From: Candidatus Shapirobacteria bacterium
GTDB lineage: Bacteria; Patescibacteriota; Microgenomatia; UBA12405
Reading direction: 5' to 3'
Length of the DNA stretch: 64,000 nucleotides
Assembly: GCA_041659325.1 (NCBI GenBank)
Contig: JBAZYN010000002.1
Coordinates: 206,082 to 270,081, forward strand
Shown here in pieces: positions 26,801 to 59,876 of the stretch. A program made the translations under genes and the position numbers. Below the pieces are notes generated by a model, which searched no databases, had not been told where the DNA came from, and was given only the letters and a program-made list of their open reading frames with translations. Position 1 is the first letter of the stretch. Every line of letters starts with the position of its first letter.

Positions 26801-28651
26801 AGAATGAGAGTCACCCACAGAGATGCTTAAGTAATTTGTTCCATCAAGATTATAATCAGACGACCATCTTGCTGTGATTAAATAGGTGGCTCCGGCAACT
26901 AAGGTTTGGCTTTTAGTTGCATATTTTTCGTCTACTCCCAAGGAAAAATATTTATAACCCACCCTACTGTCATACACTAGTTCTATGCCGTTCCAATCGC
27001 TACTAAAAGCAAATAATCCATGTACTGAGGTGTCGTCATCAGAATTAAACTCCGGGGTGTACCAAAAGGTAATACTTCCTTGTTTTCTATCGAATTGGTT
27101 ATAAAGATTGCCAGCAATTTGAGAACCAAGGGGGAAAGCGAGCGAGTCTCCGTTAGCATCTCCCCAGCGATCTCCCTGGATAAGAACGCCTGCAGCAAAA
27201 GGGGCGGTGGCGCCGGTGCCGGCATTTCTTTTGGCGATATTTGGGGTAAAGGTGGAAAAATCATTTCCACCATCGGTCCAGCCAATACTATATGTGCCGT
27301 GTTCGAAACTGGGATTAGTAATTTTGTTGGTAGTGGCCTCTTCCAGAAAAATTCCCGGGTGTGCGGCATAAGATTGGGTGGGGAGAGTGCCGGTGTCGAG
27401 AGTTGAGGAGTCGATGCCAACAAGCCCACCGACATATTTGGCACCGGTGATAGTGCCGTGGTTGGCGTTGCCCGAATCGTCGATGGCCTTGCCGGAGTTT
27501 CTGGGGTCATCCCCGTTTTCGTCAAAATGAAGAAGAAGTTTGGTGAATTCATCGCGGACAAAGGGGGTGGTTTGGGGGGTAAAGTCGGTGGTGTAACGAG
27601 CGACACTGGAAACTCTTACTTCGTCAACAATCCCGTTGTAGTTATTGGAGCCAATATTAAATCCTGACCATATGGTTGGTGTTGTGCAAAGCCCGGTTCC
27701 GGTAGCATAATTGTTGCCGTTTAAATAATATTTTATATCGGCACCGTTTCGGACAATGGCGATGTGATACCAGAGATTATGAGTTATGTTTGCGCTTGAA
27801 GCGCTATAATCTTTACAACCGTTAAAAGTATATGCTTGAATGTCATGTCTTCCGTCTCCCCAGTAATGAAAAACGCCTGACCCTCCGTCTCCTCCTCCGT
27901 TTGTTAGCGACATAATTTGCGAGCTTATCGGGTTGTCGGCAGCTTTAAACCAAAATTCTACAGTAAAAAAATTTGAGCCGGACAATAGGGTGCCTGTTTT
28001 GCTTACATTGTCTCCACTTCCAAAACTTAAAGCACTATTGGCTCCGGAATAGCGAATGGCACCGGAGGAAGTGGTGGGGGTGGTGGTACCGGAGGCGGTA
28101 GCGCAGGTGGTGTTGCCGTTGAAACCACAATAAAAGGTAGCCTGTTTGGAGCCAATATTAAAAGCGGAAATGGACGAGGCGTCAACAGCATTTGGGTTGG
28201 AATAGTAAAGAAAGTAATTGGGATCGACGGCAGAGTTGGCCATATCCGCCTGGAGGGGGAAATGAATAATGGTACTGGCAGAGGTGGCACATGTGGCGGA
28301 GGAGGGGAGATCAACATAGTAGTTTAACTGAGCGTTGGTGGTGAGAGATTGATAATAAACTCTAAGATCAGCGCAGTCTGATTGAAGGTCACCGGAATCA
28401 ACTAGAGCTTTGGTATTGAGGGTAAGGGAATAGGTGGTATTGGCGTCGAGAGTTTGGCCGGAGTTGTTGGCCAGGGTAAGCTGTTTGCGTTTTAACCACT
28501 CACCGGCGGTGACAGGCCAAGAAGCGGCTTTAATAGAGGCTCTTTTTTGATTGATACGAATGAGAAGAACAATAGGGATGAGAAGAAAGACAAGGATAAT
28601 AAGAAGGGTTTTGTAAGAAAAAGAGCTGGCCCTTTTGTGAAATGACATCAA
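20849..28651 (-). CDS. giant (2600 aa) membrane-anchored surface protein with multiple concanavalin A-like/LamG (Laminin_G_3-like) lectin domains
   Basis: N-terminal TM (KTLLIILVFLLIPIVLLIRI). Repeated LamG-like cores: FTVEFWFKAADNPISSQIMSL, SLSFWIKPSASSTPIFDL, SISLWFKTTASSGTLYG, TIALWFKTSAASSGPLIQFGD, AVSFWIKPSSTSQSILEL, each followed by WYHIAIV/WHYVALV/WHFLTYV-type strands. Confidence 0.7.
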   Translation of the reverse strand: MMSFHKRASSFSYKTLLIILVFLLIPIVLLIRINQKRASIKAASWPVTAGEWLKRKQLTLANNSGQTLDANTTYSLTLNTKALVDSGDLQSDCADLRVYYQSLTTNAQLNYYVDLPSSATCATSASTIIHFPLQADMANSAVDPNYFLYYSNPNAVDASSISAFNIGSKQATFYCGFNGNTTCATASGTTTPTTSSGAIRYSGANSALSFGSGDNVSKTGTLLSGSNFFTVEFWFKAADNPISSQIMSLTNGGGDGGSGVFHYWGDGRHDIQAYTFNGCKDYSASSANITHNLWYHIAIVRNGADIKYYLNGNNYATGTGLCTTPTIWSGFNIGSNNYNGIVDEVRVSSVARYTTDFTPQTTPFVRDEFTKLLLHFDENGDDPRNSGKAIDDSGNANHGTITGAKYVGGLVGIDSSTLDTGTLPTQSYAAHPGIFLEEATTNKITNPSFEHGTYSIGWTDGGNDFSTFTPNIAKRNAGTGATAPFAAGVLIQGDRWGDANGDSLAFPLGSQIAGNLYNQFDRKQGSITFWYTPEFNSDDDTSVHGLFAFSSDWNGIELVYDSRVGYKYFSLGVDEKYATKSQTLVAGATYLITARWSSDYNLDGTNYLSISVGDSHSYGGTSAPTIDATNSNIYIGKGISGGIGVADGIIEGLTIYRRPLWDGAYGINAGNGDEIALIHGSGIGKDPATITGSWDVVFALPTNSSTGTLGLGTTATGEAWSHPHASNVLYTSTTNTGGFMMSGTAPNDGWNVIPWYKVGGTTGQVAAYQAIGAGSSAASYVNLANPGTYNLTSGTAPTWSASTGWTFNGTNQFLTTGLTPSANTWSYLVRFSDANTSDYWRAIIGTTDNNNWSVAVYPIAGGGGYKAYYNGHYDSLYLSGAVASGVMGMSYNKGYLNGTSEPGTIPIINPPNKNLYIGAKNTNSGADSFLPGKIQAAAIYNTTLTADQVANVTDAMETLDAGGTYLSVAPLAASEKIYAGGYKFTTTGANQGISTTKTGLTAGQNYVVRAIANSGDGTGQPKIFIYDETNGADITSYTGTVGSGRTAPDVMLFTFELPTIAKHGVSADCTSITVKLVNAANSGTVHWHQVELLPNQVNGPSMETGSGTPWLPTGFTITSGTEGEAEQELSDVNSGLSAWQINGMSTYGKNGTYDLDTTFSTGSFINVGFAAKGASDANFGFHECPDPYRNMVATSTGGSTWKNFFNAVRMPTLCGEGSYLSFYSWTVGIVDDLYAFRLSDVSLTVTPATSTNSLESNRIRIDGTDTYTHTLLGTGTTIGSVVFDYTPRHSASIINKFGSTMPYIAEFYGDSDDYIRLYWSAANTIKLDYSMVGSTASATWDASAVTAGTTYQMSIGYTGGGTMSFILDGTSRISLSSIPANFGTAPSTAFWGTNQTGLNQADATFLPQPASFIQNTISPYFKFGAKSTTINNSLASDPRGFVIPINTGSTATHTLSAYVYDGTTGNMGGAVSSTVAQLIFNGVAVGTTYVDAGGGWWRLWYRGTAGSDSQNYGLQVKSGKTIYVDGFQLEQNQTLTTYTDGNMGIGYSWTGTANESTSTRAIAQTIYNTAIPTNDTTGTVSLWVKPNWNGSDGPAEQWDTLTYLKIGSGGYGWGNGFFIGNYSNNPGDTISSFRVGHYGTGSGTATVSTTITKDKWYHLVYTWNETTAQLFVNNVASSAITFNTHTDDGRVDFIPTSYGSPHSTTISNAKFYDDPLTAAEVADLYYSGLGSHQQQSGYTERFTDGEPSTSYWKLDENTGTILNDSININHGALGSGSSSPTWAIGTSCAVNSCLSFDGSDDYAIVNGSLTGLKSLSFWIKPSASSTPIFDLNGIQTVTLTNNILQANGLTSPSIYVNGAATSAVPSDIWSQVLITSSTSFGLSSLKIGQSGADFFSGFLDEIKVFPYVLSSSEIKKETNLGKAVVIGEEPGQPVVTPISKKLVAHWKFDEGYNTIAHDSVGTNNGTFGTGSSAPNWSNDGKFGKALSFDGNDYVTLSTGAEFDLTSVNPSISLWFKTTASSGTLYGDYAANNTLNGFLTISGGKASGSFRDGGTFILSVGGTKIVNDDNWHYVALVKTSDTTLSLYIDGKLDATGSNSSYNNSNLIGGVLPSLGRNPEYNNDFYTGLLDEVKIYNHALTGDEIKQDYNLGSAVVFGTLSSGTGNTAPSSAASQEYCIPGDSAACLPPVGRWDFNEGVGNSTYDTSGNNNTGEIVNASWLSGRIGKSLRFNGVNNYIKNIRIPIRTSGNQVHTIALWFKTSAASSGPLIQFGDANLPATSANADEAIGWRSANGVLSVSNYCNNSSHLYTNSQASYRDNKWHFLTYVVDGTSSKLFVDGILRGQNTSVTSSNIQTYASNPYMGIGLRTRPSGSDIDNDDFADAIIDQILVYNYARSPAQIALDYNHGRPIAHYKMDECQGTAVHNSSSDTFHGTLSVGASGTQTSAGTCTTSGVWFNGATGKINSSLNLDGSDDYVSVGDIGTSATAVSFWIKPSSTSQSILELSASDSIAISSGTITVTGFGTETVYVDGRLSSTIPDTNWHHITVVSSASLPANTVNLGKVGSTYYSGLIDDVQIYNYPLTPTQIKTIFNSNAAIKFSD

Positions 28652-28662
28652 TTAAGTATAGA

Positions 28663-28724
28663 GTCTGAAAGTCGGAAAGTCGAAAGTCTAAAAGCCATGC
28701 CTGCCGGCAGGCAGGTCTAAAAGT
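28663..28724. repeat. GTCNAAA ('KSESLK') repeat plus palindrome GCCATGCCTGCCGGCAGGCAGGTC in intergenic spacer
   Basis: gtctgaaagtcggaaagtcgaaagtctaaaagccatgcctgccggcaggcaggtctaaaagt. Confidence 0.8.
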
Positions 28725-28738
28725 AATAAAGTAGAAAA

Positions 28739-29566
28739 TTAGTAAGGTAGGCGGGGGACGAAGCGGGGGTAGATTTGGAGAGTGGATTCAATTTTGTGAG
28801 ATTTGAATAAAAGAATGAAAAAGATAAAGAGGGTTAAAAGGAAGACGGGGATGAGGACGATAAAGAAGTAGTATTGCTGCCAATAGAACCACCAAAGGGA
28901 GGGAAGAGTATAAAGAAGAGTATTCGATTTCGGTGAATTGCTGTCAAGATATTTTACAGAGGTGTACAGGCGGTAATTGCTGGAGTAGGCGGTGGGGAGG
29001 TTAAATTCATAATTTCCGGCGGTATTGGTTTTGGTGGTGAGGGATGGGAGAGAATAGGCTTGAACTTCTTTTGGAAAAGAAAGGGCGGAGTTGGTCACCT
29101 TGAAAAATTCAATTTTTATCTCTGAGTCGGGGATGGCTTGGCCGGAGGCAAGAGCGGTAGAATTTGGTTTTATTTTGGCAGTGTCAATTGTCAGGGTGGG
29201 AGAGAGGAGGATGGGGCCGGTTTCGGTGTGATAGTTAGTTTCCGGTGGAGGGGGGATACAGACGGGAACGGATTGACGAAAACTATCGTCGGTGGAGCGG
29301 AAACAGAGTTCTGAGGGTAGTTTTGGTAAGAGGGTTTTGAGAAATATAAAATAACCGGTGGTATCGCTGTATGTCTGGGAGTAAACATTGGTGCTTTCCA
29401 TCTCTACTTTTGAGAGAGGAGAGGTATAGCCGTAGACGGTGATTTCGTTTTCGCCGATTGAAGCGGAAACCAAAACTGCTGACGGTTGGACGGTATACAG
29501 AGAAGCAAGAGAGTCTTTCGGAGTAAATGCCTGTGCCAGAAAAAAAAGGAACAGGATGAAGCTCAT
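28739..29566 (-). CDS. secreted protein with C-terminal TM anchor; contains AGNYE motif
   Basis: Signal peptide MSFILFLFFLAQAF. ...TNTAGNYEFNLPTAY... C-terminal TM WWFYWQQYYFFIVLIPVFLLTLFIFFILLF. Confidence 0.5.
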   Translation of the reverse strand: MSFILFLFFLAQAFTPKDSLASLYTVQPSAVLVSASIGENEITVYGYTSPLSKVEMESTNVYSQTYSDTTGYFIFLKTLLPKLPSELCFRSTDDSFRQSVPVCIPPPPETNYHTETGPILLSPTLTIDTAKIKPNSTALASGQAIPDSEIKIEFFKVTNSALSFPKEVQAYSLPSLTTKTNTAGNYEFNLPTAYSSNYRLYTSVKYLDSNSPKSNTLLYTLPSLWWFYWQQYYFFIVLIPVFLLTLFIFFILLFKSHKIESTLQIYPRFVPRLPY

Positions 29567-29570
29567 GGGA

Positions 29571-30566
29571 TTATTTGCTGTCTTTGTATTTTTTCTTGAG
29601 CTCTGAGAGTTCTTCTTCGAGTTTTTCGACTTTTTGGGCGTCCTTTTTGGGCGGATTGGTTTGGCCGATCAGTTTTATCAAGATGAGCAAAAGGGCGAGG
29701 GTGGCGACAACCAGGACAATAATCTTCCATGGGATTACCCAGAAGAAAATGGTGGCGGCCAATAGGCCTCCGGCAGTACCATAGCCGGCCTGAAGGTTGG
29801 CTTTGTAGCGACCAAATAACCATTTTTTGCTAAAGGTATTTTCGAAAGTTCGGCTAGTATAGGGGAAAATGTTGGTGTTGTTGAGAGGGAGATTAATGAC
29901 GTTTTTGCCGAAGATATTTGAAATAGCGATGTGGCCAATCGGGTTGATATGGATATCGGAGAGGTTTTTTATGGTGGTAGTGAAATCGACGGGGCCATAT
30001 TCAAGAAAGATGGGGGCGGAAAAATCGGTGATTTGAGCGTCCTGCTTTATGTCTCCGGCGATGGTGATGTAAACAAGAGTACCGACATTGGTCTCGATGG
30101 AAGAGCCGGTGGCATCCAGGACAGCTTCGTTTTGGGGACTGTGAAGAACCATGGCATAGTGACCGCCGGGGATGGCATCGTCGGGAGCCAGGACTGACAA
30201 CATTAATGATTTTGTTTCTCCGGGTTTAAGCTTTATCTGAGAGGGGGAGACCTGAACCCAATTGCTAGCGGCCCAGCGATTTTGGGTTTCATCAGTGGCG
30301 ACCCTTACCGGGGTGCCATCGTCGGTGTTGACAATGAAGTCTGAGGTGATGGTGGTAATAACTCTTTCGGTGGAGGATTCGTTTCGGACTTTGATTTCTC
30401 TGGTGACGACTTCACCCGGATTGAGGGAGATTTCAAGTCGGGGGGGAATAGCGGAAAGGCCAAGGGCGGATTGGGCATTTGCCTGGGTAACCTGTAATTT
30501 GTAACCGGTAATCAGTAACAAAAATAGGGCCAGAATTTGTGATAATTTCTTTTGATTTGTTTTCAT
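29571..30566 (-). CDS. secreted protein with C-terminal TM anchor and Lys/Glu-rich cytoplasmic tail (4-bp overlap with downstream gene)
   Basis: Signal MKTNQKKLSQILALFLLLITG. C-terminal TM FFWVIPWKIIVLVVATLALLLILIKLIG, then KKDAQKVEKLEEELSELKKKYKDSK. Confidence 0.5.
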   Translation of the reverse strand: MKTNQKKLSQILALFLLLITGYKLQVTQANAQSALGLSAIPPRLEISLNPGEVVTREIKVRNESSTERVITTITSDFIVNTDDGTPVRVATDETQNRWAASNWVQVSPSQIKLKPGETKSLMLSVLAPDDAIPGGHYAMVLHSPQNEAVLDATGSSIETNVGTLVYITIAGDIKQDAQITDFSAPIFLEYGPVDFTTTIKNLSDIHINPIGHIAISNIFGKNVINLPLNNTNIFPYTSRTFENTFSKKWLFGRYKANLQAGYGTAGGLLAATIFFWVIPWKIIVLVVATLALLLILIKLIGQTNPPKKDAQKVEKLEEELSELKKKYKDSK

Positions 30567-30608
30567 TTTAATTACAGATTACTAATTACAGATTACCGTT
30601 TACAAATT
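30493..30608. repeat. GTAATCW heptad repeats in both orientations at the gene boundary
   Basis: cctgtaatttgtaaccggtaatcagtaac ... ttaattacagattactaattacagattaccg. Confidence 0.7.
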
Positions 30609-32101
30609 TAAAATGTTGCCGTGGCGGTGTATACCAATTTGCCTTCGTAATTTCCGGCCTCTTGGAAGTTGGTAACCGATAAGCGATAACAAACCCAGGC
30701 GGTTTCGCTGGTAGTGGGCGGACTGGCGCTAGAGAGAATGGTTTGGGCACTGGTGGAGCCTATACCGAAAGATTTGTAGCCTGTGTTGTAATCAAAGATG
30801 GAGGTGCCGACATTAATATTTTCGATTGAATAACCCCACTCTGACCGAGCCGTGTCAACGGCCGTCCAGGCGGCGGCGGTGGTGAATGAACAGCCACCAT
30901 TGCAGTCGGTGTCGGGGATGGTGGTGGTGGTGTTGATATTTTTCATATTATTTTCCTCAAAAACTGTGACGGCATAACCGTTGTCGGCATTGGTGACACA
31001 GGACAGGTGTTGGGCGAGATCGTTGAATACGGACAAGTTTAGAGATCCGAAATTGACAGCGGTAGCGGTAGTGTTGGGAGCGGCGGCGCTTAGAGGGGAA
31101 CCGCAAAGTGAGTCTCCGGCGCTTAGAACTCCGGAAGTGCCGATGGTAAAGGTAAGTGTCGGGTCGACGGTGGCAGTAACACGAACTGCTTCTACCAAGG
31201 CAATTCGGCCGGCGGTGGTGTCGGAGCTATATACTGCACCAGTGCTGTCGGTATGGCGAACGTAATAGAAATATGTGTCTCCGGAAGAATCGGCCTGACC
31301 CGGGGTGTGGCTAGAAGAGGCACTCGGATTAATTAACTGACTGCCGGTGGCGAGGTCTGTTCCAATAACCATGGAGACACCGACATCAACAGGATTGGTG
31401 GTGCCAGCAGCAAGGGCGCATTCGATGATATGAAAGGAACTGGTGGTCGACCCATTGGTAATAACGGCGGTGGTACCGGTGGCGGAAGCGGTAACGCCAA
31501 AAGGACAGGTAATATCGGCAAGGTTAACCCTGGTACCCAGGCCGGTTTGGGTGCCACCGACATCCTGACCGAGGTCAAAACCGTCTTGGTCGGGAATACC
31601 GTCGGCTTCTTTACCGGTGACCGAGGTGGCTTTGATGAGAAACTGCCATTTGTTTCCCGGAGACGTGGATTTGGGGGTGAAATGGACAGTATGGACGGCG
31701 GATCTGGTGGCGACAATGGCAGCACCGGCAAAATTATTGCTAACACCGATGCCGGTATTTAGTTGGATAGAGGCGGTATTACCAATGTCCCGAACTGTAT
31801 AGACGGTCATCGGACCGTTTAGGTCAGCTCCGGTAAAACCGATTGCGATGGTGTCTCCCACGAATAAATTGGAGGTGTTAAGTGATGGGGCGGTGCCAGC
31901 GGTCATTGATACTCTGATAACATTGTCGCCGGCAGAACTTCCGGCGCTAAGCCGGGCAAAATATGAGAGTTGGGAGGTGGAGAGAACGTCCTTGACGTTG
32001 GTGGAGGGGGCGGATTCGAGTTTTTTGGTCCGAGCAAAAAAGAAAAAACAAACGATTAACAGGCAGGAAAAAACGGAGAGCTCACGAATGGTACGTTTCA
32101 T
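30608..32101 (-). CDS. secreted beta-rich protein ending in AGNYE motif (paralogous C-terminus to 38110-38859)
   Basis: Signal MKRTIRELSVFSCLLIVCFFFFA. C-terminus ...VTNFQEAGNYEGKLVYTATATF. Confidence 0.5.
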   Translation of the reverse strand: MKRTIRELSVFSCLLIVCFFFFARTKKLESAPSTNVKDVLSTSQLSYFARLSAGSSAGDNVIRVSMTAGTAPSLNTSNLFVGDTIAIGFTGADLNGPMTVYTVRDIGNTASIQLNTGIGVSNNFAGAAIVATRSAVHTVHFTPKSTSPGNKWQFLIKATSVTGKEADGIPDQDGFDLGQDVGGTQTGLGTRVNLADITCPFGVTASATGTTAVITNGSTTSSFHIIECALAAGTTNPVDVGVSMVIGTDLATGSQLINPSASSSHTPGQADSSGDTYFYYVRHTDSTGAVYSSDTTAGRIALVEAVRVTATVDPTLTFTIGTSGVLSAGDSLCGSPLSAAAPNTTATAVNFGSLNLSVFNDLAQHLSCVTNADNGYAVTVFEENNMKNINTTTTIPDTDCNGGCSFTTAAAWTAVDTARSEWGYSIENINVGTSIFDYNTGYKSFGIGSTSAQTILSSASPPTTSETAWVCYRLSVTNFQEAGNYEGKLVYTATATF

Positions 32102-32218
32102 TTATAAATAGTTATAAAAATGGCAATAATTCCTATACCTTAAAGATAGACCAAGTTATTAACTATTGTCAATGAGTAGGTGGGTAAATTTTATTACAAA
32201 GGGAGTTGGGGCGGGATG

Positions 32219-32792
32219 TGTATTTAATAGGTTGATTTTTAAAGAATATAGGTCTATAATGGGTTATGGCTGAGTATGAAGTTGAGGTGTTGAGAAAAGG
32301 AGAATCTTTGGAGGGGGAAGGAGTTGTCGCTGTAGTTTCTAGTGGAGATCTTTTCGAAATAGATGGAATACGAGTTGATAATTGCTCAAGCCCGACTTCG
32401 GGTGTTATTGGGCAAGTGTGGGTTCCGGAAGGGGGCTTTAGGGTAAGCCTAGAAATGTTCGGGTCGAGGGTAGAAGTTGGTGGGAGGGTCTGTAAAGAAA
32501 AGTGCGTCCGGGGGGCTTAGTTTTAATGAAAATGCAGGTATAGGGGGGCAAGGTGTGGTGGCAGAGATTTTTAGAAGGGGTGAGGTGATTGATCAACAAA
32601 AATCGAAAGGGGAAAGTGTGGTGATGGTTAAAGACTCGCCAGTATCTGTTATTGTAGAAAAACCGAAAGGGGACACAATCGTTTTCAGGTATAGACAAGC
32701 TGTTTGAGGGTTTAATTCTTTGGCAAGGTTGAGAGAGACCGGAGTTTTTTATAAGTGAGGTTGTAGGTGTGTATTTAATAGGTTGATTTTTG
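32219..32792. repeat. 24-bp direct repeats (tgtgtatttaataggttgattttt) bracketing a 550-bp segment with two overlapping small ORFs
   Basis: Copies at 32219-32243 and 32769-32792. ORFs 32266-32520 and 32477-32707 are in adjacent frames and share internal similarity (GVVAVV/GVVAEI). Confidence 0.5.
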
Positions 32793-32826
32793 GTGGTCAA
32801 AAGGATAAAGTAAACGAGTCTAAAAG

Positions 32827-32862
32827 TTAAAAGTCTAAAAGTCGAAAGTATGAAAACATCAA
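32827..32862. repeat. GTCNAAA repeat overlapping the ppdK start codon
   Basis: gtctaaaagttaaaagtctaaaagtcgaaagtatgaaaac. Confidence 0.7.
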
Positions 32863-35597
32863 AAACAGAAAAAATGAAAAAATACGTCTATTTTTTTGGT
32901 AGTGGAAAAGCCGAGGGTGACAAGGATATGAAGTTTATATTGGGCGGAAAAGGGGCAAATTTAGCGGAAATGACAAACTTGGGGATTCCGGTACCGGCGG
33001 GTTTTACGATTTCAACTGAAGTTTGTAAATATTATGCAGAAAGTCTCAAAGTCGAAAAGTCCGAAAGTCTCAAAGTCGAAAAGTCTGAAAGTCTGAAAGC
33101 CGGAAAGTCGGAAGACAGATATCCGAAGGGGCTGGTAGAAGAGGTTGAGGAAGTACTGAAGAAACTGGAAAAAAATACGGGAAAAAGGTTTGGGGATGCA
33201 AAAAATCCGCTTTTGGTATCGGTTCGGTCCGGAGCAGCCGCCTCAATGCCGGGGATGATGGATACTATTTTAAATTTAGGTCTTAATGATAAAGTGGTGG
33301 CGGGAATGATTGAAAAAACCGGAAATGGGCGGTTTGTGTGGGATTCGTACCGAAGATTTATGCAGATGTTTGGCAATGTAGTCGATGGGGTGGAGCATGA
33401 GAAGTTCGAGCATGTGATAACTGAGGTTAAGGCCAAAAAGGGGATAAAGGCCGATACGGAAATGAAAGCCGAGGATTGGCAAGAGGTGGTATCGGGTTAT
33501 AAAAAGATTTACAGAATTGAGAAAGGCAGCGAATTTCCCGAAGATGCCAAAGAGCAGATGTGGCGGGCAATTAATGCGGTTTTTGGGTCGTGGAATAACC
33601 CTAGGGCCAATGTTTACCGCCAACTAAATAAAATCGATGAAAAGAAAATATTTGGGACGGCCGTGAATGTGCAAAGCATGGTGTTTGGAAATATGGGTGA
33701 TGACTGTGGGACGGGGGTGGCATTTACCCGAAATCCCTCAACCGGAGAAAACAAAGCTTACGGAGAATATTTGATGAATGCTCAGGGAGAAGACGTGGTG
33801 GCGGGAATAAGAACGCCAAAGCACTTGGAGTCCCTGAAGGAAGATAACGAGAAGGTGTATGCCCAGTTGATCAACATCTTTGAGAAGTTGGAGAAGCATT
33901 ATAAAGATATGCAGGATGTGGAATTTACGATTGAAAATGGAAATTTGTTTATCCTGCAGACTCGGAACGGCAAGAGAACGGCAGCGGCCATGGTTAGAGT
34001 GGCGTGTGATTTGGTAAAGGAAGGGTTGATTGACGAAAAGACGGCCTTGGTTCGGGTTGAGGCTGACAAGTTAGATCAGTTACTTCACCCGACATTGGAT
34101 GCAAAAGCCAAGGCAAATTTTAAAGTAATAGCCAAGGGGTTACCGGCTAGTCCGGGAGCAGCTTCGGGAAAAGTGGTGTTCAATGCCGAGGCGGCAGTTG
34201 AAGCCAAAGAAAAAGGAGAGAAAGTAATACTGGTTCGTCAGGAAACAAGCCCAGAGGACATTTCGGGAATGAATGCAGCCCAGGGGATTTTGACGGCCAG
34301 GGGCGGGATGACTTCTCATGCGGCAGTAGTGGCCAGAGGTATGGGTAAATGTTGTGTGTCTGGCGCTGAGAACGTAATAGTGCTAGAAGCAGGAAAGATG
34401 TTTAAAGTAGGTGATTTGGTGGTAAATGAGGGGGACATAATAACTCTGGATGGAGGAACAGGCGAAGTGCTTTTGGGCCAAGTACCGACAATGGCGCCCG
34501 AGTTATCGGGATATTTTGAGCAGATTATGAAATGGGCGGATAAGTATCGAAAATTGGGAGTAAGAACCAATGCAGATACACCCAAGGATGCAAAGACAGC
34601 CCGGGAGTTTGGGGCGGAGGGGATCGGGCTTTGCCGAACCGAACATATGTTCTTTGCCGAGGATAGGATTTTTGCGGTCCGCCAGATGATTGTGGCGGAT
34701 ACTTTGGAGCAGAGGGAAGTGGCTCTGAAAAAGATTTTCCCAATGCAAAAAAATGATTTTAAACAATTGTTTGAAATTATGAGGGGGCTGCCGGTGAAAA
34801 TAAGATTATTGGATCCACCGCTTCACGAATTTTTACCTCAAAAGAAAGAGGATGTTGAAGCTTTGGCCAAAGAGATGGGAATAACTACCGAAAAATTGCA
34901 GGAGAAAATAGATTCTTTGCATGAGTTTAATCCAATGATGGGACACAGAGGCTGTAGATTGGGAATTACTTTCCCGGAGATTTTTGTGATGCAGGTAAAG
35001 GCAATAATGACAGCCGCCTGCGAGGTGTCAAAAGAAGGGCAGACACATCGGTCTGCCCATACAATCAAGCCGGAAATCATGATTCCGTTGGTGGGTGATG
35101 TGGAAGAATTGAAGTGGCTTAAGGTCAGATTGGTTCCGGCAATTGAGGAAACCATGAAAGAGATGGGGGTAAAGCTTGACTATGAGATTGGGACAATGAT
35201 TGAGATTCCGAGAGCAGCAGTAACGGCTGATGAGATTGCGGTAGAGGCTGATTTCTTCTCGTTTGGGACGAATGATTTGACCCAGATGACCTATGGATTT
35301 TCGAGAGATGATGCCGGAAAGTTTTTGAAGGATTATATCAGCCAAAAAATATTGGTGGAAGATCCTTTCAAGAGCGTTGATCAGGTGGGAGTAGGTAAAT
35401 TGATGAAAATGGCAGTAGAGCTTGGTAGGGGAACTAAAAAGCATCTGCACGTAGGGATTTGCGGTGAGCAGGGCGGAGATCCTGATACTGTAAAATTTTG
35501 CCATAGAATAGGACTAGATTATGTATCCTGTTCGCCTTATCGGGTGCCGATTGCCAGATTAGCAGCAGCTCAGGCGGCGGTGGAAGAAAAGAAATAA
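32850..35597 (+). CDS. ppdK: pyruvate, phosphate dikinase
   Basis: PEP-utilising phosphohistidine domain GGMTSHAAVVARGMGKCCVSGA. N-terminal ATP-grasp and C-terminal PEP/pyruvate domain (ICGEQGGDP). Carries an in-frame insert ESLKVEKSESLKVEKSESLKAGKSE encoded by the GTCNAAA repeat at 33041-33115. Confidence 0.9.
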   Translation: MKTSKTEKMKKYVYFFGSGKAEGDKDMKFILGGKGANLAEMTNLGIPVPAGFTISTEVCKYYAESLKVEKSESLKVEKSESLKAGKSEDRYPKGLVEEVEEVLKKLEKNTGKRFGDAKNPLLVSVRSGAAASMPGMMDTILNLGLNDKVVAGMIEKTGNGRFVWDSYRRFMQMFGNVVDGVEHEKFEHVITEVKAKKGIKADTEMKAEDWQEVVSGYKKIYRIEKGSEFPEDAKEQMWRAINAVFGSWNNPRANVYRQLNKIDEKKIFGTAVNVQSMVFGNMGDDCGTGVAFTRNPSTGENKAYGEYLMNAQGEDVVAGIRTPKHLESLKEDNEKVYAQLINIFEKLEKHYKDMQDVEFTIENGNLFILQTRNGKRTAAAMVRVACDLVKEGLIDEKTALVRVEADKLDQLLHPTLDAKAKANFKVIAKGLPASPGAASGKVVFNAEAAVEAKEKGEKVILVRQETSPEDISGMNAAQGILTARGGMTSHAAVVARGMGKCCVSGAENVIVLEAGKMFKVGDLVVNEGDIITLDGGTGEVLLGQVPTMAPELSGYFEQIMKWADKYRKLGVRTNADTPKDAKTAREFGAEGIGLCRTEHMFFAEDRIFAVRQMIVADTLEQREVALKKIFPMQKNDFKQLFEIMRGLPVKIRLLDPPLHEFLPQKKEDVEALAKEMGITTEKLQEKIDSLHEFNPMMGHRGCRLGITFPEIFVMQVKAIMTAACEVSKEGQTHRSAHTIKPEIMIPLVGDVEELKWLKVRLVPAIEETMKEMGVKLDYEIGTMIEIPRAAVTADEIAVEADFFSFGTNDLTQMTYGFSRDDAGKFLKDYISQKILVEDPFKSVDQVGVGKLMKMAVELGRGTKKHLHVGICGEQGGDPDTVKFCHRIGLDYVSCSPYRVPIARLAAAQAAVEEKK
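33041..33115. repeat. GTCNAAA ('KSESLK') repeat inserted in-frame in ppdK
   Basis: aagtctcaaagtcgaaaagtccgaaagtctcaaagtcgaaaagtctgaaagtctgaaagccggaaagtcg. Confidence 0.85.
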
Positions 35598-35619
35598 AGC
35601 TCTTGAAGGTGGAATTAAA

Positions 35620-35646
35620 GCCCCGCTTAAACGGCGGGGTTTTTGG
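35620..35646 (+). terminator. rho-independent terminator after ppdK
   Basis: aaagccccgcttaaacggcggggttttt: GC stem, loop and T-tract 23 bp after the stop. Confidence 0.6.
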
Positions 35647-35654
35647 TATGGGTA

Positions 35655-35683
35655 TTGAAATAAATCCTATAATATGATATAAT
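35655..35683 (+). promoter_or_regulatory. candidate promoter (TTGAAA, 17-nt spacer, TATAAT) for lipoprotein gene
   Basis: ttgaaa at 35655-35660 and tataat at 35678-35683. Confidence 0.35.
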
Positions 35684-35795
35684 GGGGGTGTTCTTTAAGT
35701 ACCTTAAAAACTGATGCCAGACAAGTGGTTTTTCCGGTCCAAAAGTGAAAAATCAGGTATTTTTTACTTTTGGGTCGTGAAAGATCACTTATGTT

Positions 35796-36377
35796 ATGAA
35801 AAAGGAGATGATTGTGAAGAAGCGCTATGTTTTGCTATTCGTCGCGCTGCTGGCTATGTTGGTGGTTGGGTGTGAGGTTACTCCGGGTGTTGCGCCTGCG
35901 CCTGTGCCTGCAGACACCCTCGAAGGGATGACTGAAGCGGAAGTCGAGGTTGTGCCGACGATAGTGTTGGTGCAACTGCCACTCGAGTCATTTCCGGACG
36001 ATGCACTCTGGAGTTTGACCGTGGAGATTGTAGACTCTACCGAGGGTACGGTTTGGGATGAGGCGCGAGGTCAGCGCAGATCTGGGGATTTTGCCATTTC
36101 TGTGTTTGGGTGGGAAAAAGGATATATTCTCTACCCTTGGGATGGGAATACCCGTATTGGCGCGGTGAAGCAGGTAGAGGTCGATTTTGGTCTTGTTCCA
36201 AGCATCCGTGAAGAGGATAAGACGTATATCACAGAAGCGCTTTCGCGGATTGCGGGGACCAACGATATGGGAATCCAAGACCTGGTGTGGAAGGTCACGA
36301 ATGCGACCTATACGGACGAAGGTCTAAGCATGAACCTGGTGTTCTTCTCTCTTGAGGGGAGGAAACCAGCGAACTAG
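35796..36377 (+). CDS. lipoprotein (lipobox VVGC) of unknown function; GC-rich, atypical codon usage, probable foreign origin
   Basis: MKKEMIVKKRYVLLFVALLAMLVVGC signal plus lipobox. The gene is visibly about 50%+ GC with GCG/CGC/CTG codons, against an AT-rich background. Confidence 0.55.
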   Translation: MKKEMIVKKRYVLLFVALLAMLVVGCEVTPGVAPAPVPADTLEGMTEAEVEVVPTIVLVQLPLESFPDDALWSLTVEIVDSTEGTVWDEARGQRRSGDFAISVFGWEKGYILYPWDGNTRIGAVKQVEVDFGLVPSIREEDKTYITEALSRIAGTNDMGIQDLVWKVTNATYTDEGLSMNLVFFSLEGRKPAN

Positions 36378-36525
36378 TTCGGCGGGCGCAGTCTGGCGTT
36401 AGGAGGTCCGGAAGAGGGCAAAGGAGAAGGTGGGAAGCGCTACGCTTTCTATTTTTGATTTTGTTTCTCTTCCGGGCCGGTGTGTGTGTTTTTCTTTTTT
36501 CTGTTTTAAAAAGATGATTTTTTAA

Positions 36526-37173
36526 TTGGGAAAAGAGAAAAAATTTAAATCACCCTTTTTTAACGCTCCCCTGTCAAGGGGAGCTGTCCGTAGGACTGAG
36601 GGGTTTGAGATTAAAACCCCTTTTGTGTTTAAACCCTGTCCTAACCTTTCCCTTGACAGGTCAAGGCATAATATGTCATCTTCTCCCTATCAAGAGGAGG
36701 ATTTAAAATTCAAACCCCTCTTGTATTCTCCCCTTGACAGGGGAGAAAATGGGACGGGGATGAAAACCGGTATTATTTTTGAGGCTAAAACTAAAAAATA
36801 TCATTTGAAATATAGGGATTCTTTAACATGGGCAGCAAAAAATAATCGTAAAAATGAAACAGAAAGTGAAAAATTATTATGGAATAAGTTATTGAGGAAA
36901 AAGAATTTAGGTTATAAATTTACCAGACAAAAACCAATAAACAGGTTTATCGTTGATTTTTATTGTTCTGAATTAAGTTTAGCTATTGAAATAGACGGTG
37001 ATTCTCATAACCTTAGGAAGGACAGAGATAGTCTAAGAGATAAATATTTATATACCTGTGGAATTAAAACGTTAAGAATAAGCGATAAGGATGTGATAAA
37101 TGATATTGGAAAAGTAGAAAAAGAAATTAATGAATTTATTAGATGCTCCCCTGTCAAGGGGAGCTGTCCGTAG
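36526..37173 (+). CDS. DUF559 (Vsr-like endonuclease fold) domain protein; true start probably near 36760 (upstream part of ORF is repeat-encoded)
   Basis: LLWNKLLRKKNLGYKFTRQKPINRFIVDFYCSELSLAIEIDGDSHNLRKDRDSLRDKYLYTCGIKTLRISDKDV is the typical DUF559 core. Confidence 0.6.
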   Translation: MGKEKKFKSPFFNAPLSRGAVRRTEGFEIKTPFVFKPCPNLSLDRSRHNMSSSPYQEEDLKFKPLLYSPLDRGENGTGMKTGIIFEAKTKKYHLKYRDSLTWAAKNNRKNETESEKLLWNKLLRKKNLGYKFTRQKPINRFIVDFYCSELSLAIEIDGDSHNLRKDRDSLRDKYLYTCGIKTLRISDKDVINDIGKVEKEINEFIRCSPVKGSCP

Positions 37174-37187
37174 GACTGAGGGGTTTG
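36565..37187 (+). mobile_element. DUF559 gene bracketed by identical 43-bp direct repeats (gctcccctgtcaaggggagctgtccgtaggactgaggggtttg), with extra partial copies inside
   Basis: Copies at 36565-36607 and 37145-37187. Related hairpin fragments at 36640-36665 and 36722-36748. A homologous copy lies in-frame in leuS (56085-56180). Confidence 0.5.
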
Positions 37188-37249
37188 GAGGTAGGGTTTG
37201 CCGGTCGACAGGGGAAGGGTTTGGGGTAAGGTTCGAAGTGGGGGTAGAT

Positions 37250-38107
37250 TTAGGAACGTGTAACACTGCCATGCTTTGCTCGTAATGACGATTGGGTTTT
37301 GATGATGAAGATTAGTGCAGGGATAATCAGCAAAATCAGCAGGGAAAAAGGAAAGACAAAAAAGGTAGTAGAAAAGGACTTGGCGGAAATGGAGGGGTCA
37401 AAGTTGATGGTGGCGGTATAAGCACCCGGCCAAAAGGGAGGGGAGATGGTACAACTTTCCTGGCACTGGAGATTACGGCGGTGGTTTGAAAGGACATTGA
37501 GAGGGCTCAGCTCGATTCTTTTGATGACGAGGCCATTTTTGGAAATAGTAAGGTCACCGATAGTTTTAAAATAGAAGCCGGAGTCATTTCTAATTTGAGC
37601 CGAGAAGGTAACAGGGGTGAAGAAAATATCTTTTATTTTTGGGGTGGCTTTAAAGTTATCAACAGAAATATCGGTGGCGGGGTTTTCGGTTTGGGAAACG
37701 GAGAGAAGGATATGAGACCCGATTTTACCCGAAGTTCCGGAAAAAGAACCAGAGGTAGCAGAGGTTTGTCGCTGCGAGATAAAAAAGGTGTAGTAATAAT
37801 CACCAAGGTTGGCATCGGGGGCAACTTCAATTTTGAGGACAAGTTGACGGGTGGATTTTGGCATCAGGACAAAGGGGCTATCAAGCCGGTTATCCTGATT
37901 GGTTAGGGAAAACTGAAGGTAATTGGTGGAAGCGACGTTGTCGTAGGTGACGGAACCGTCGGGTCCGGTTGGTTTCCAGGGGAGGACAGAGGCGTCGACG
38001 GCAAGGCTGGTGTTGGAGTTATTGGTGACGTTATAAACCTGAGTAATGACACCACCGGGGAGAACGACGAATTCGGTTTGGGCTGGTTTTAGGGTAATAT
38101 CAAACAT
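37250..38107 (-). CDS. hypothetical protein with C-terminal TM anchor
   Basis: C-terminal FFVFPFSLLILLIIPALIFIIKT. No N-terminal signal is evident. There is a 2-bp gap to the upstream gene. Confidence 0.45.
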   Translation of the reverse strand: MFDITLKPAQTEFVVLPGGVITQVYNVTNNSNTSLAVDASVLPWKPTGPDGSVTYDNVASTNYLQFSLTNQDNRLDSPFVLMPKSTRQLVLKIEVAPDANLGDYYYTFFISQRQTSATSGSFSGTSGKIGSHILLSVSQTENPATDISVDNFKATPKIKDIFFTPVTFSAQIRNDSGFYFKTIGDLTISKNGLVIKRIELSPLNVLSNHRRNLQCQESCTISPPFWPGAYTATINFDPSISAKSFSTTFFVFPFSLLILLIIPALIFIIKTQSSLRAKHGSVTRS

Positions 38108-38109
38108 AG

Positions 38110-38859
38110 TTAATATTTGGGAATGGCAATAAAGGTAATGGCGTTTTCGTAGTTGCCGGCGGATTGAGTGGCTAGGATGTTGACTTTGTAGGTAATAGAA
38201 GCAGTCCGACTTCGGGACGGGACGTTTTCAGACATAAAAATATGGCCTGAGGTGGCAAAGGGACGGTAGTGGCTGGAAGTGGGGAAATAAGTGGCACCGA
38301 TGCCGGAAACATTGTAGCCAAAGCCGTAGGCGGTGGGCGAGTTCCAGACATTGGAGGAAGAAACGGTACACGAGGTGGCCTGGTCGCAGGAAGTATCGGG
38401 AATGGTGGTTTGTGAACCGACTAGGGTCAGGGGGTGGTTTTCCAAAACATAGATATCATAGCCATGGCCGGAAGGAGAGGAGACAGTGACAGTATGGCTT
38501 TGGGTGGTGCCGATGTCGGGGGTAAGGGTGCCAAAATTTATGGCCAGGTCGGGATTGTTGATTTTGAAAGAAAAATCGAATAAAAGATCGTAGATGTATT
38601 GAAAACCGGATTTGACAATATAGCCACCGTCAAGGCTGAATTTCCCTGGGGCAAATTGACCGACAGTGTCGGTAAGCTGATAAGTAGTGGAGGATTTTTT
38701 GCCGGAGGTCATGTTGAAATTCCCCATGTCGATAATGTAGCTATCGGAGGAGAAACGTTGAGCGTGGCTGGTAATTGGTAACCAGTAATTAGTAATTAGT
38801 AATAAGAAAAGAGTTAGAAAGATTTTAGATTTCATCAATGGTTCTGTCGCTATCTTCAT
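38110..38859 (-). CDS. secreted beta-rich protein ending in AGNYE motif (paralogous to 30608-32101 C-terminus)
   Basis: Signal MKIATEPLMKSKIFLTLFLLLITNYWLPITSHA (partly encoded by the GTAATCW repeat at 38770-38803). C-terminus ...ATQSAGNYENAITFIAIPKY. Confidence 0.5.
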   Translation of the reverse strand: MKIATEPLMKSKIFLTLFLLLITNYWLPITSHAQRFSSDSYIIDMGNFNMTSGKKSSTTYQLTDTVGQFAPGKFSLDGGYIVKSGFQYIYDLLFDFSFKINNPDLAINFGTLTPDIGTTQSHTVTVSSPSGHGYDIYVLENHPLTLVGSQTTIPDTSCDQATSCTVSSSNVWNSPTAYGFGYNVSGIGATYFPTSSHYRPFATSGHIFMSENVPSRSRTASITYKVNILATQSAGNYENAITFIAIPKY

Positions 38860-39475
38860 TGATATAGTTTGATACTTTATTGGAGGAATTGGATATATAT
38901 TTTAGGTCGTTTTTTATTTTTGTCAGAGAGACTTTTTGGGAAGAGGTAAGGTCGGAGCTGCCAAGAAGGTTAGTGATGGAATCGGTGGTGTTTTTGATGA
39001 AACCTTTAAATTTTAGGGAATGCCAGAGGAGAATGTCGGTTTCTTCCTGGGAAATCTGGCGATCAAGGGTAGTCTTTTCCAAATACTGACGGCTGACAAA
39101 CCAGGCAAGGGGATCAATTAGGAGAAGAGAAAGAAGAGGAATGAGGGAGGAAGCGGAGTTTAGAGATTGGGAGAGAAAAATAATAATGATTAGAGAGTAC
39201 GCCAGGGTGAAGGAGGGCGAAAGCCGGAAGGCAGAAATAAATAAAAGAAAGTAGACGAGAAAAAAGCCGGGGGAATTGAGACCGCCGGTGGTGAAAATAA
39301 TGACGTTAACAATAGCGCCGATAAGATTGAGGTATAGAGTTTTTTTGTAAATCGAGAGTCCGAGGGTGATGATAGCCAGGAGAGCGATTAGCTGAGGGGT
39401 CAGATGAGTATAGGGGGAAATGGAAAAGAGATAGGCAAGAGTGGTGGTGATGAAAAAATAGGCAATGGATTGCAT
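38825..39475 (-). CDS. polytopic membrane protein (ORF track 38825-39871; likely starts at the internal Met near 39475 because the upstream part overlaps comEA)
   Basis: Several TM helices (AYLFSISPYTHLTPQLIALLAIITLGL; GFFLVYFLLFISAF; LIIIIFLSQSL). The 5' 400 bp of the long ORF is antisense to the well-supported comEA. Confidence 0.4.
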   Translation of the reverse strand: MQSIAYFFITTTLAYLFSISPYTHLTPQLIALLAIITLGLSIYKKTLYLNLIGAIVNVIIFTTGGLNSPGFFLVYFLLFISAFRLSPSFTLAYSLIIIIFLSQSLNSASSLIPLLSLLLIDPLAWFVSRQYLEKTTLDRQISQEETDILLWHSLKFKGFIKNTTDSITNLLGSSDLTSSQKVSLTKIKNDLKYISNSSNKVSNYINEDSDRTIDEI

Positions 39476-39878
39476 TAATATTATGGTAGCATTTTTGGAG
39501 ATGGGCAAGAAATGGTGGAGGTCCAAGTGGATTATTGATTTAATCTTGGTTTTGGGGATATTAATGGTGGCGTTGGGGGTGGGAATGGAAATCGAGGGCC
39601 AAAAACAGGTTTCTGAAGTGGTGGTGGAGAAGGGAGCAGTAAAGGGAGTAGTGGTGGCCCCGTCGGCGGCGGGAACAGGAATTAGAACAGGGATAAATAT
39701 CAACAAGGCCACGGCCGAAGAGTTGGACGTTTTGCCTGGTATCGGGCCGGCGATAGCTAAAAGAATAATAGAGTATAGGGAGAAAAACGGTGGTTTTTTG
39801 AATACAGAGGAAATTAAGTTAGTCAGCGGGATAGGAGAGAAATTGTTTGAAAAAATTAAGGACAAGATCACTATCTGA
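39465..39878 (+). CDS. comEA: competence protein ComEA (TM + helix-hairpin-helix DNA-binding domain); probable start at 39501 (MGKKWW...)
   Basis: GININKATAEELDVLPGIGPAIAKRIIEYREKNGGFLNTEEIKLVSGIGEKLFEKIKDKI is the ComEA HhH signature. Confidence 0.75.
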   Translation: MDCINIMVAFLEMGKKWWRSKWIIDLILVLGILMVALGVGMEIEGQKQVSEVVVEKGAVKGVVVAPSAAGTGIRTGININKATAEELDVLPGIGPAIAKRIIEYREKNGGFLNTEEIKLVSGIGEKLFEKIKDKITI

Positions 39879-41620: not shown

Positions 41621-41631
41621 AGGAATAATTT

Positions 41632-42450: not shown

Positions 42451-42475
42451 TCAGTAATCAGTAATCTGTAATCTG
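42432..42475. repeat. GTAATCW heptad repeat x6 spanning the comEC stop
   Basis: gtaatcagtaatcagtaatcagtaatcagtaatctgtaatctgg. Confidence 0.85.
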
Positions 42476-43668: not shown

Positions 43669-43968
43669 GTGGACAAGTGGAGACAGAGAATTCATAGATT
43701 AAGTATGAACCAACTAAAAGCGTTGGGGGTGTTGGCGGCGAGTAAAAACGGGATTGTGGAAGCATTGGAATCATCGGGTAATTTGCGTTTATACGGAAAA
43801 GCGTTGGGAGGAGTATTTTCGTCGCTGTCGCGACAAGTTTTGAACGGTCAGCATTTGATCGAGGCCTGGGGTCGTGTCGAACGCGGTAGGGGGTTGAGGT
43901 GGAAGCTGAACTTGGAAGCAATTAGTCAGCGGGAATTGAAAAAAGCGGTAGAGGAGGTACTGGGGTGA
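43669..43968 (+). CDS. small hypothetical protein, stop overlaps start of giant gene (ATGA)
   Basis: 99-aa ORF. The 4-bp overlap suggests translational coupling. Confidence 0.3.
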   Translation: MDKWRQRIHRLSMNQLKALGVLAASKNGIVEALESSGNLRLYGKALGGVFSSLSRQVLNGQHLIEAWGRVERGRGLRWKLNLEAISQRELKKAVEEVLG

Positions 43969-54186: not shown

Positions 54187-54250
54187 GAAAGTCTAAAAGT
54201 CTGAAAGTCTTAAAGTCGAAAGTTATAAAGTTCATAAAGTTTATAAAGAG
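54187..54250. repeat. GTCNAAA repeat (intergenic)
   Basis: gaaagtctaaaagtctgaaagtcttaaagtcgaaagttataaagttcataaagtttataaag. Confidence 0.8.
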
Positions 54251-54330: not shown

Positions 54331-54366
54331 TGTAATCAGTAATTGGTAATTTGTAATCTGCAATAA
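54331..54366. repeat. GTAATCW heptad repeat (intergenic)
   Basis: tgtaatcagtaattggtaatttgtaatctgcaat. Confidence 0.75.
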
Positions 54367-59850: not shown

Positions 59851-59876
59851 ATTACGAATTACGAATTACGAATTGG
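59851..59876. repeat. ATTACGA heptad repeat between the two tRNA genes
   Basis: aattacgaattacgaattacgaatt. Confidence 0.85.

Follow-up and report, generated by a model that had tools for sequence, protein, structure and literature searches.

Does a five-residue motif, AGNYE, that recurs in three neighbouring genes of a Candidatus Shapirobacteria genome mark a family of surface proteins and, if so, what do these proteins build? The question comes from a stretch of 64,000 nucleotides (contig JBAZYN010000002.1 of assembly GCA_041659325.1, positions 206,082 to 270,081; referred to as the window, with coordinates counted from its first letter). A first-pass annotation, made from the letters alone, saw in it a paralogous family of three secreted proteins in two loci, each paired with a C-terminally anchored partner, and suggested a small conserved surface complex or pilus-like module. 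We favor the possibility, with a probability of roughly 0.7, that these genes of Candidatus Shapirobacteria (Microgenomatia) specify a pilus of the Pam type in a divergent form. Pam is a chaperone-assisted, donor-strand-exchange pilus of the candidate phyla radiation (CPR), described from Candidatus Mycosynbacter amalyticus (Troman et al. 2026, bioRxiv 10.64898/2026.03.03.709456). The open reading frames (ORFs) at issue are named here as follows:

A, 30608-32101, minus strand: 497 aa; predicted PamA-like two-domain major pilin with signal peptide, beta-rich N-terminal domain, linker and C-terminal domain
B, 29571-30566, minus strand: 331 aa; WxLIP-related, chaperone-like protein with signal peptide, two beta-sandwich domains, membrane helix (29661-29729) and charged cytoplasmic helix
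C, 28739-29566, minus strand: 275 aa; candidate PamR-like anchor with signal peptide, strand AVLVSASIG, two small beta-domains and C-terminal membrane helix (about 28805-28873)
D, 38110-38859, minus strand: 249 aa; predicted single-domain PamT-like (tip) pilin with signal peptide and a pilin C-terminal domain ending AGNYENAITFIAIPKY
E, 37250-38107, minus strand: 285 aa; paralogue of B with C-terminal membrane helix (about 37301-37363) and basic tail, no signal peptide
X, 38825-39460, minus strand: polytopic membrane protein with cytoplasmic helical tail; conserved first gene of the cluster

Six genomes were read for this cluster, namely the window and the related loci L002/L003, L004, L074, L075 and L076, and the order X-D-E-A-B-C is conserved in all six. 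Together with the Pam matches of A and D, the anchored, chaperone-like B with its two immunoglobulin (Ig)-like domains and its paralogue E, this synteny bears out the suggestion of a small conserved surface-complex or pilus-like module.

AGNYE marks two paralogues

The three ORFs and the motif in each of them had been located correctly: AGNYE occurs three times (in A, C and D) in the six-frame translation of the window, against 0.017 expected from composition. The C-terminus of A reads ...FQEAGNYEGKLVYTATATF and that of D ...QSAGNYENAITFIAIPKY, and C holds ...NTAGNYEFNLPTAY... upstream of its C-terminal hydrophobic helix. The three sites are:

30644-30658, minus strand: AGNYE in A (residues 482-486), at the turn of the hairpin that the final two predicted strands form (466-475, 489-495); identity 0.92
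38146-38160, minus strand: AGNYE in D, a turn preceding the last beta-strand
29006-29020, minus strand: AGNYE in C, a coincidental pentapeptide inside a CarboxypepD_reg-like G-x-aromatic motif

Residues 343-497 of A align with residues 101-249 of D (BLASTP, 28% identity over 157 aa, E=5e-15), a profile built from D homologues alone picks up A at 1.4e-21, and HHalign of A against D gives 99.7%; sequence comparison of C with A and D found nothing in common beyond the pentapeptide. Since homology between A and D extends across about 150 residues and C shares the pentapeptide alone, the motif is the signature of a family of two. The supposed family of three therefore stands for A and D and falls for C, which is a look-alike. 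In the orthologues of C the site reads SQGYYSLNLPNSY, DGTYSLSLPTTY or QGRFSFSLPTDH (over nine residues QGYYSLNLP, DGTYSLSLP, QGRFSFSLP or QGNFNLNLP), G-x-aromatic being the only part that is kept. In addition, none of the other ORFs of the window has the pilin domain of A and D or the domain of B and E.

Q480, G483 and Y485 are invariant in the A family and E486 nearly so (consensus C-terminus YICYRLTASTTQEAGNYENxLVYTATATF); the D family (ITYKxNISxxQxAGxYQNSIxFIAVPKY) has no variation at Q232, G235, Y237 and N239. AGNYE, or more generally Q-x-x-G-x-Y-[EQ]-N, is a conserved turn ahead of the last beta-strand of the pilin domain, a strand that by analogy would line the groove of the domain.

That the motif recurs by chance in Thr/Ala-rich secreted proteins without any functional link was named in the annotation as a possible refutation. 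For C the exact pentapeptide is indeed coincidental (QGYYS, DGTYS, QGRFS and QGNFN take its place in the orthologues), but as the sole explanation chance is hardly credible at all, given the excess of three over 0.017, the homology of A and D, the motif residues that are invariant in both families and the 1,845 clusters (at 50% identity, E<=1e-3; 861 at E<=1e-10) that a D-family profile finds among 1.84 billion representatives in public data.

A and D are related to Pam pilins

Searches of Pfam gave no match for A and, for D, only a weak sub-threshold match to VKOR (E=0.048). Both proteins do match models in NCBIfam (June 2026 release) that derive from the Pam study, in which structures of two M. 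amalyticus filaments were solved by cryo-electron microscopy (Troman et al. 2026):

D against NF058579, "CPR-type pilus protein PamT": E=1.2e-8, 34.7 bits (curated cut-off 240 bits), model positions 7-241 of 241
D against NF058581, "Pam pilus system pilin subunit": E=6.4e-7, 29.6 bits (curated cut-off 55 bits), model positions 5-148 of 148
A against NF058581: E=4.3e-5, 23.6 bits (cut-off 55 bits), model positions 2-148 of 148

The matches extend to the families. All 43 members of the D family match NF058581 (best 5.5e-10) and 42 of them match the PamT model (best 3e-16); for the A family NF058581 is matched by 21 of 42 members (best 5.5e-7). With scores under the 55-bit cut-off, homology to NF058581 is supported and automatic naming is not. 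NF058579 is an equivalog model; D is by sequence a homologue of PamT and may have the same function. A distant Microgenomatia branch, still annotated as 'hypothetical', is what scores so far under the cut-offs point to; distant homologues of PamA in Microgenomatia have been reported, by language-model search only (Troman et al. 2026).

The known Pam parts comprise the two-domain pilins PamA, PamB and PamE, the single-domain tip PamT, the PapD-like chaperones PamC and PamD with C-terminal membrane helices, and the anchor PamR, which has an N-terminal strand, two tandem beta-domains and a C-terminal membrane helix; each pilin domain takes up the linker of the next subunit, and conservation is reported to be highest in the donated linker and in the site that binds it (Troman et al. 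2026). The architecture of a two-domain major pilin, namely an N-terminal beta-sandwich, a conserved linker strand and a truncated Ig domain at the C-terminus, is present in the AlphaFold2 (AF2) prediction for A, which shows a signal-peptide helix, a beta-rich N-terminal domain (predicted local distance difference test score, pLDDT, 60-85), a conserved linker and a confident C-terminal domain (pLDDT about 90; mean of the model 78). The linker is the feature of interest:

31154-31216, minus strand: linker of A, residues 296-316, ...VEAVRVTATVDPTLTF; candidate donor strand

With a mean identity of 0.83 it is the most conserved stretch of A (the highest-ranking 15-aa windows begin at residues 297-307), next to the last 30 residues at 0.84 and about 0.68 elsewhere, and in the monomer model pLDDT falls below 50 at residues 304-312. 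A linker that is conserved yet disordered in the monomer is the pattern expected of a donated strand, and it agrees with the conservation reported for Pam. In D, a single-domain protein, the conserved N-terminal region reads QxFxSxSYxIDWGNFNMTSG...KSGFQYIY. Six cysteines are invariant in the A family, and the invariant paired cysteines of A and D fit an extracellular location.

Foldseek of full-length A against the PDB gave weak, domain-confounded matches that include CfaB (prob 1.0), Saf (SafDAA), CsuE and the TasA fibre, all of them donor-strand-assembled subunits; no Pam entry and no WxL chain stood among the best 50 matches, and sequence-profile searches of the PDB with A and with the pilin C-terminal domain found no match.

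Homologues at about 50-60% identity run into the hundreds for each of A, B and D, and nearly all are named 'hypothetical'. For A there are 558, from Shapirobacteria and Woesebacteria, all so named. The named homologues of A, B and D come from Shapirobacteria, Woesebacteria and unclassified Patescibacteria, which fits the restriction of Pam to CPR bacteria. WC841_04285 and WC841_04320, of a Candidatus Shapirobacteria metagenome-assembled genome, are 100% identical to B and D, respectively.

Some members of the D family are fused to other modules. In P0391 (479 aa) a D-like region is combined with a Laminin_G_3 domain, and P0457 (2559 aa) is a giant protein with a PamT-like domain at its end; they recall both the architecture of large WxL proteins and the giant LamG protein beside the cluster of the window.

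B is a remote homologue of WxLIP

The annotation was right that an AGNYE protein is followed by a partner with a C-terminal anchor: A is followed by B, whose AF2 model (pLDDT 85) has two Ig-like beta-sandwich domains and a membrane helix at residues 280-302, and D is followed by E, which ends in a hydrophobic stretch and a basic tail. Foldseek of B against the PDB was topped by 9i25_C, "WxLIP from Enterococcus faecium locus A bound to long WxL" (E=2.1e-11), and 9i1y (2.9e-11), followed by RbmA and then by the fimbrial chaperones CfaA (8e-10, TM-score 0.52), FimC, CsuC and Caf1M (~1e-8) and CupB2. DUF916 had been listed as a profile to try, and on the anchored partner it found its mark: Pfam WxLIP_PGBD (DUF916) is matched by 36 of 44 B-family members, with a best value of 8.8e-6 and all under the cut-off, and none of the 44 matches the PapD family of Pfam.

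For a direct comparison, 68 Firmicutes WxL loci were collected through a DNA pattern of the DUF916 signature, yielding 55 WxLIP and 74 small WxL proteins whose identity was confirmed by Pfam on a sample. HHalign of the B/E family against the 55 WxLIPs gave 97.1% (E=5e-11, 249 columns), and 87.7% (E=3.4e-6, 215 collinear columns) once signal peptides and membrane helices had been removed; negative controls stayed at or below 10%. By single domain, domain 1 of B gave 90.7% and domain 2 was not significant. Given the top structural matches, the DUF916 matches and HHalign values above those of the controls, B is a remote homologue of WxLIP, although it lies under the Pfam family threshold.

This result raises an alternative. 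According to prediction, WxLIP places one of its strands in a gap of the WxL sandwich, and the WxL clusters of Firmicutes, which combine a small WxL protein, a large WxL protein and a DUF916-DUF3324-transmembrane protein, have been proposed to form a non-filamentous surface complex (PMC10599100). B and E might likewise complete the beta-sandwich of A and D permanently and one-to-one at the membrane, with no polymer. The relation of B to WxLIP, from 9i25_C to the HHalign values of 87.7-97.1%, speaks for such a complex. So does the gene logic, since here as in WxL clusters (PMC10599100) a small single-domain protein stands beside a large one with the same domain at its C-terminus and beside an anchored protein with two Ig-like domains. 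B, and E by paralogy, also share with WxLIP (PF06030 and PF11797) a DUF916-like domain, a second Ig-like domain and a C-terminal membrane helix, and B has a signal peptide as WxLIP does.

The pilin side of the comparison tells against it. Neither A, D nor the 42 A-family members have a Pfam match to WxL (PF13731), and the four pilin profiles compared (one of the C-terminal domain, one of this domain in the A family, one of the D family and a broader D profile with an effective sequence number, Neff, of 5.4) reached at most 1% against the 74 WxL proteins in HHalign under two alignment settings. The WxL profile, also proposed in the annotation, thus found no support among the AGNYE proteins. A and D lack W-x-L motifs and have Y-x-V and Y-x-A at analogous places. 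Three collinear motifs do come to lie opposite one another in the best local HHalign paths, namely xFGx, GYxV with GWxL, and EAGNYEGKLVYTA with DAVDYKTKLTWVL (in general form xFGx, G[YW]x[VL] and GxYxxx[LI]x[YW]x[AL]), a pairing that has no statistical support. Further differences from WxL clusters are that A and D have no detectable WxL domain, that there is no LPXTG partner and that domain 1 of B alone is significant by itself. Finally, A and D match the Pam pilin models, and a one-to-one complex needs neither a conserved, disordered linker in A nor the same strand pattern at the N-terminus of C. We therefore consider a one-to-one complex without a polymer unlikely and prefer the Pam-type pilus.

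The fimbrial chaperones among the matches of B invite comparison with chaperone-usher pili (class 5 CFA/I CfaA/CfaB; archaic Csu). The chaperone fold of B, the matches of A to CfaB, CsuE and Saf and the presumed donor-strand logic are similar. In contrast, there is neither an usher nor an outer membrane here, the chaperones are membrane-anchored, and A has an extra N-terminal domain and carries its putative donor strand in an internal linker rather than at the N-terminus. No sequence-level relation to chaperone-usher pili was detected, and no usher family occurs among the Pfam-annotated neighbours in the five related loci.

E is related to B at 24% identity over 191 aa (BLASTP, E=9e-9), and it is by this paralogy that we take it to be chaperone-like with two Ig-like domains. 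Its family occupies 37250-38107 in the window, 9180-9992 in L002, 6493-7311 in L004, 8828-9733 in L074, 9067-9945 in L075 and 9168-10004 in L076, usually beginning 0-2 nt past the stop codon of D (2 nt in the window). The first strand of the E family is the strand that follows the signal peptide in B. Given the C-terminal membrane helix and basic tail, the N-terminal part of E is predicted to face outward.

Two ways of supplying E with an N-terminus were considered and rejected. Fusion of D and E by readthrough or frameshift is excluded by inconsistent frame relations (in-frame in L002, +1 in L004, +2 in the window) and by the separate genes that lie between D and E in L075 and L076. An upstream alternative start is not available in frame.

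C is a candidate anchor

C and its orthologues (in L004, L074, L075 and L076) are predicted to have a hydrophobic N-terminus, a conserved strand, two small domains, each with a D..G.[YF].[FL]..LP motif, and a C-terminal membrane helix. The strand, which in C comes directly behind the signal peptide, is a second candidate donor strand:

29456-29476, minus strand: strand V31-I37 (VLVSASI) of C, resembling the linker of A (VRVTATV); candidate terminating donor strand

Among the real ORFs of the window the pattern [VI].[VI][TS]A[TS][VI] occurs only in the linker of A and at the N-terminus of C, and the orthologues have KSVAISASIG and KSVSISATIG at this place. These features would fit a protein that terminates the fibre and anchors it, in a role like that of PamR. 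X, C, E and their orthologues have no NCBIfam match.

In L002, from a Shapirobacteria genome, a different protein of 199 aa takes the position of C (12457-13056). Its N-terminus includes a hydrophobic segment, a donor-like strand reads ATATVSATIP, and a C-terminal dockerin-like domain (E=2.8e-4) replaces the membrane helix.

It is for C, too, that the annotation's comparison of the G-x-Y...P...Y pattern with the Cna-B/SpaA fold of Gram-positive pilins and adhesins must be judged. The resemblance survives in C only, as weak, sub-threshold matches to CarboxypepD_reg that fall on the motif site of 3 of 5 C proteins (E 0.005-0.056). For A and D it does not hold: there is no Cna-B, SpaA or other Pfam match in A or in 41 aligned homologues. 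A sortase-assembled pilus or adhesin of the Gram-positive type, built of such domains, could draw on these matches of C and on faint traces of SpaA/SdrD_B in a neighbouring 645-aa protein of L002. We nevertheless judge it very improbable: (i) A-E contain no LPXTG-like sorting signal; (ii) A, D and their families have no Cna-B or SpaA matches; (iii) no sortase family occurs among the Pfam-annotated neighbours in the related loci and (iv) the motif that resembles sortase-dependent pilins is confined to C, which is not homologous to A or D. Likeness to such pili thus amounts to one short motif in C, and the AGNYE pilins differ from them in lacking LPXTG, sortase and Cna-B/SpaA domains.

One cluster split by insertions

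The two loci of the annotation are not independent. In L002/L003 and L074 the pair D-E directly adjoins the pair A-B, and from this we conclude that the window has one ancestral cluster, split by the following genes:

32850-37173, plus strand: inserted genes outside the system, namely PPDK (32850-35597), a 193-aa ORF (35796-36377) and a DUF559 endonuclease-like ORF (36526-37173; Pfam E=1.7e-27)

PPDK lies between E and A in L004 as well, where nothing else intervenes, and in L075 and L076 it is small selfish genes that separate D from E. The shared order in the six genomes is a beta-lactamase-like gene, comEC and comEA on one strand and, divergently, X, D, E, A, B and a C-like gene. X orthologues of 186-216 aa hold the same position in all six and have no Pfam match; the start of X is uncertain, as an ORF call of 348 aa that reaches 39871 overlaps comEA on the opposite strand. 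The C-like gene of the related loci is followed on its 3' side by Big_1 proteins together with a small ORF of the integrase-N-like kind, and a giant LamG/DUF2341/Peptidase_S74 protein follows in all of them. In the window the giant gene stands directly after C:

20849-28651, minus strand: giant surface protein of 2600 aa with N-terminal membrane helix and seven Laminin_G_3 domains (Pfam E=2e-82)

Going by synteny, this protein is possibly an associated adhesin.

A working model of assembly and its difficulties

What the analysis shows is the homology of A with D and of B with E, the NCBIfam Pam matches, the relation of B to WxLIP, the predicted folds and the synteny, and from these we infer polymerisation, the order of subunits, strand exchange and a function in adhesion. 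In the model, D, the PamT-like single domain, would begin the fibre at its tip. A, the PamA-like subunit, would polymerise, the linker strand AVRVTATVDP of each subunit filling the open groove in the truncated Ig-like C-terminal domain of the previous one. C would close the fibre with its N-terminal strand AVLVSASIG and tie it to the membrane through its C-terminal helix. B and E, anchored and with two Ig-like domains each, would serve as chaperones whose own strand temporarily completes the groove of a pilin; this step is modelled on the predicted action of WxLIP on WxL and on that of PapD and FimC on their pilins.

The likeness to Pam extends over the CPR host, the single-domain PamT-like D, the two chaperone-like paralogues with C-terminal membrane helices, the candidate anchor with N-terminal strand and membrane helix, the paired cysteines and the giant 'tail-fibre-like' neighbours. 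Among the differences, the window has one major pilin type and no equivalents of PamB and PamE, the cluster is interrupted by PPDK and other genes, it adjoins comEA/comEC in six genomes, and the domains of C look CarboxypepD_reg-like rather than demonstrably RbmA/FnIII-like.

Several observations weigh against a Pam-type pilus. The NCBIfam scores are all far under the curated cut-offs (23.6 against 55; 34.7 against 240), and the likeness was drawn through these models and the published description, the PDB as searched holding no Pam structure. ATP-synthase genes neighbour the pam operons of Saccharimonadia (Troman et al. 2026), and the gene tables of the five related loci contain no ATP-synthase family (the window's own flanks being only partly annotated). 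All Pam components are reported to carry signal peptides (Troman et al. 2026). In our cluster hydrophobic N-termini are seen by eye in A, B, C and D and neither in E nor in its five orthologues; in 6 of 6 genomes E starts directly at its first strand, so one component of the set departs from the Pam rule. An extracytoplasmic role of E as a chaperone is hard to reconcile with the missing signal peptide, and E may be exported by an unconventional route or may act on the cytoplasmic face. Lastly, we know of no filament formed by WxL clusters, the system to which the nearest solved relative of B belongs.

If a pilus of the Pam type is nevertheless what the cluster encodes, its Microgenomatia version would consist of X, a tip pilin, a chaperone paralogue without signal peptide, a major pilin, a chaperone and an anchor, followed by giant lectin-like proteins. 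Pam pili are thought to mediate host contact of episymbiotic CPR bacteria. The homology of the chaperone with WxLIP and the signal-peptide-less paralogue E go beyond published work; Pam was described as distinct from all previously characterised filaments, WxL and DUF916 going unmentioned (Troman et al. 2026).

In Enterococcus, Listeria and Lactobacillus, WxL clusters have been connected with virulence and adhesion, and the link between B and WxLIP poses a question common to both systems, namely whether WxL clusters use the same strand-complementation logic. We entertain tentatively, as a possibility that we doubt more than we believe, that Pam pili and WxL/WxLIP (Csc) clusters descend, as separate branches, from a single ancient strand-complementation system in bacteria that lack an outer membrane. 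If this were true, the WxL domain would correspond to the AGNYE pilin domain, at which the three collinear motifs hint without statistical support, and either WxL proteins polymerise or Pam pili arose from a one-to-one anchoring complex.

Surroundings of the cluster and other features of the window

A scan for promoters and terminators gave counts no higher than in shuffled sequence, and its candidates, two sites that lie upstream of A (32172-32143) and of D (38926-38899) and a hairpin that follows C (28715-28700), are hints only. The divergently adjoining comEA/comEC region, present beside the pilus cluster in all six genomes, spans 39465-42450. The comEC gene of the window is in two pieces, with Competence at 39847-40914 and Lactamase_B at 41632-42450; the ORF between them (40917-41555) is IS200/RAYT-type transposase-like by eye and contains a 51-nt tandem repeat (41225-41344). 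Three giant predicted surface proteins of 2400-2600 aa fall within 40 kb (11359-19113, 20849-28651 and 43965-51197).

Short repeat arrays of two kinds occur in the window:

3289-3420, 28662-28694, 32817-32847, 33039-33113, 42195-42239, 54189-54215 and 57236-57255, plus strand: arrays of an 8-nt unit (AAGTCNNN / GAAAGTCT)
8426-8455, 9063-9085, 19368-19390, 30569-30608, 38771-38803, 40409-40441, 42433-42473, 43977-44000, 54343-54365 and 59851-59870, both strands: arrays of a 7-nt unit (ATTACNN / GTAATYA)

The 8-nt arrays, all in plus orientation, give 19 two-unit matches against 0.15 expected and are partly coding (PPDK thereby contains ESLKVEKSESLKVEKSESLK, and the metallo-beta-lactamase domain of ComEC has a similar insert). 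For the 7-nt arrays the two-unit matches number 33, where 0.3 would be expected; the intergenic spacer between A and B is filled by one of these arrays, another lies inside the region that encodes the signal peptide of D (ITNYWLPIT), and others encode peptides of the type NYELRITNYE at gene starts.

Strand composition is uneven throughout. The plus strand is richer in G than in C along the window, with a GC skew of 0.05-0.46 in nearly all 2-kb bins, and the skew at third codon positions, expressed for the plus strand, is +0.2 to +0.84 in all 22 large genes in either orientation. The strand-specific mutational asymmetry is thus unusually strong, with no switch point in the window. Finally, a 438-aa ORF at 4568-5884 has by eye a type IV prepilin-like N-terminus (GFTIIELLVAISIMAVL), followed by Pro/Thr-rich repeats and a Cys-rich domain; if this N-terminus is that of a prepilin, the genome also encodes type IV pilin-like proteins.

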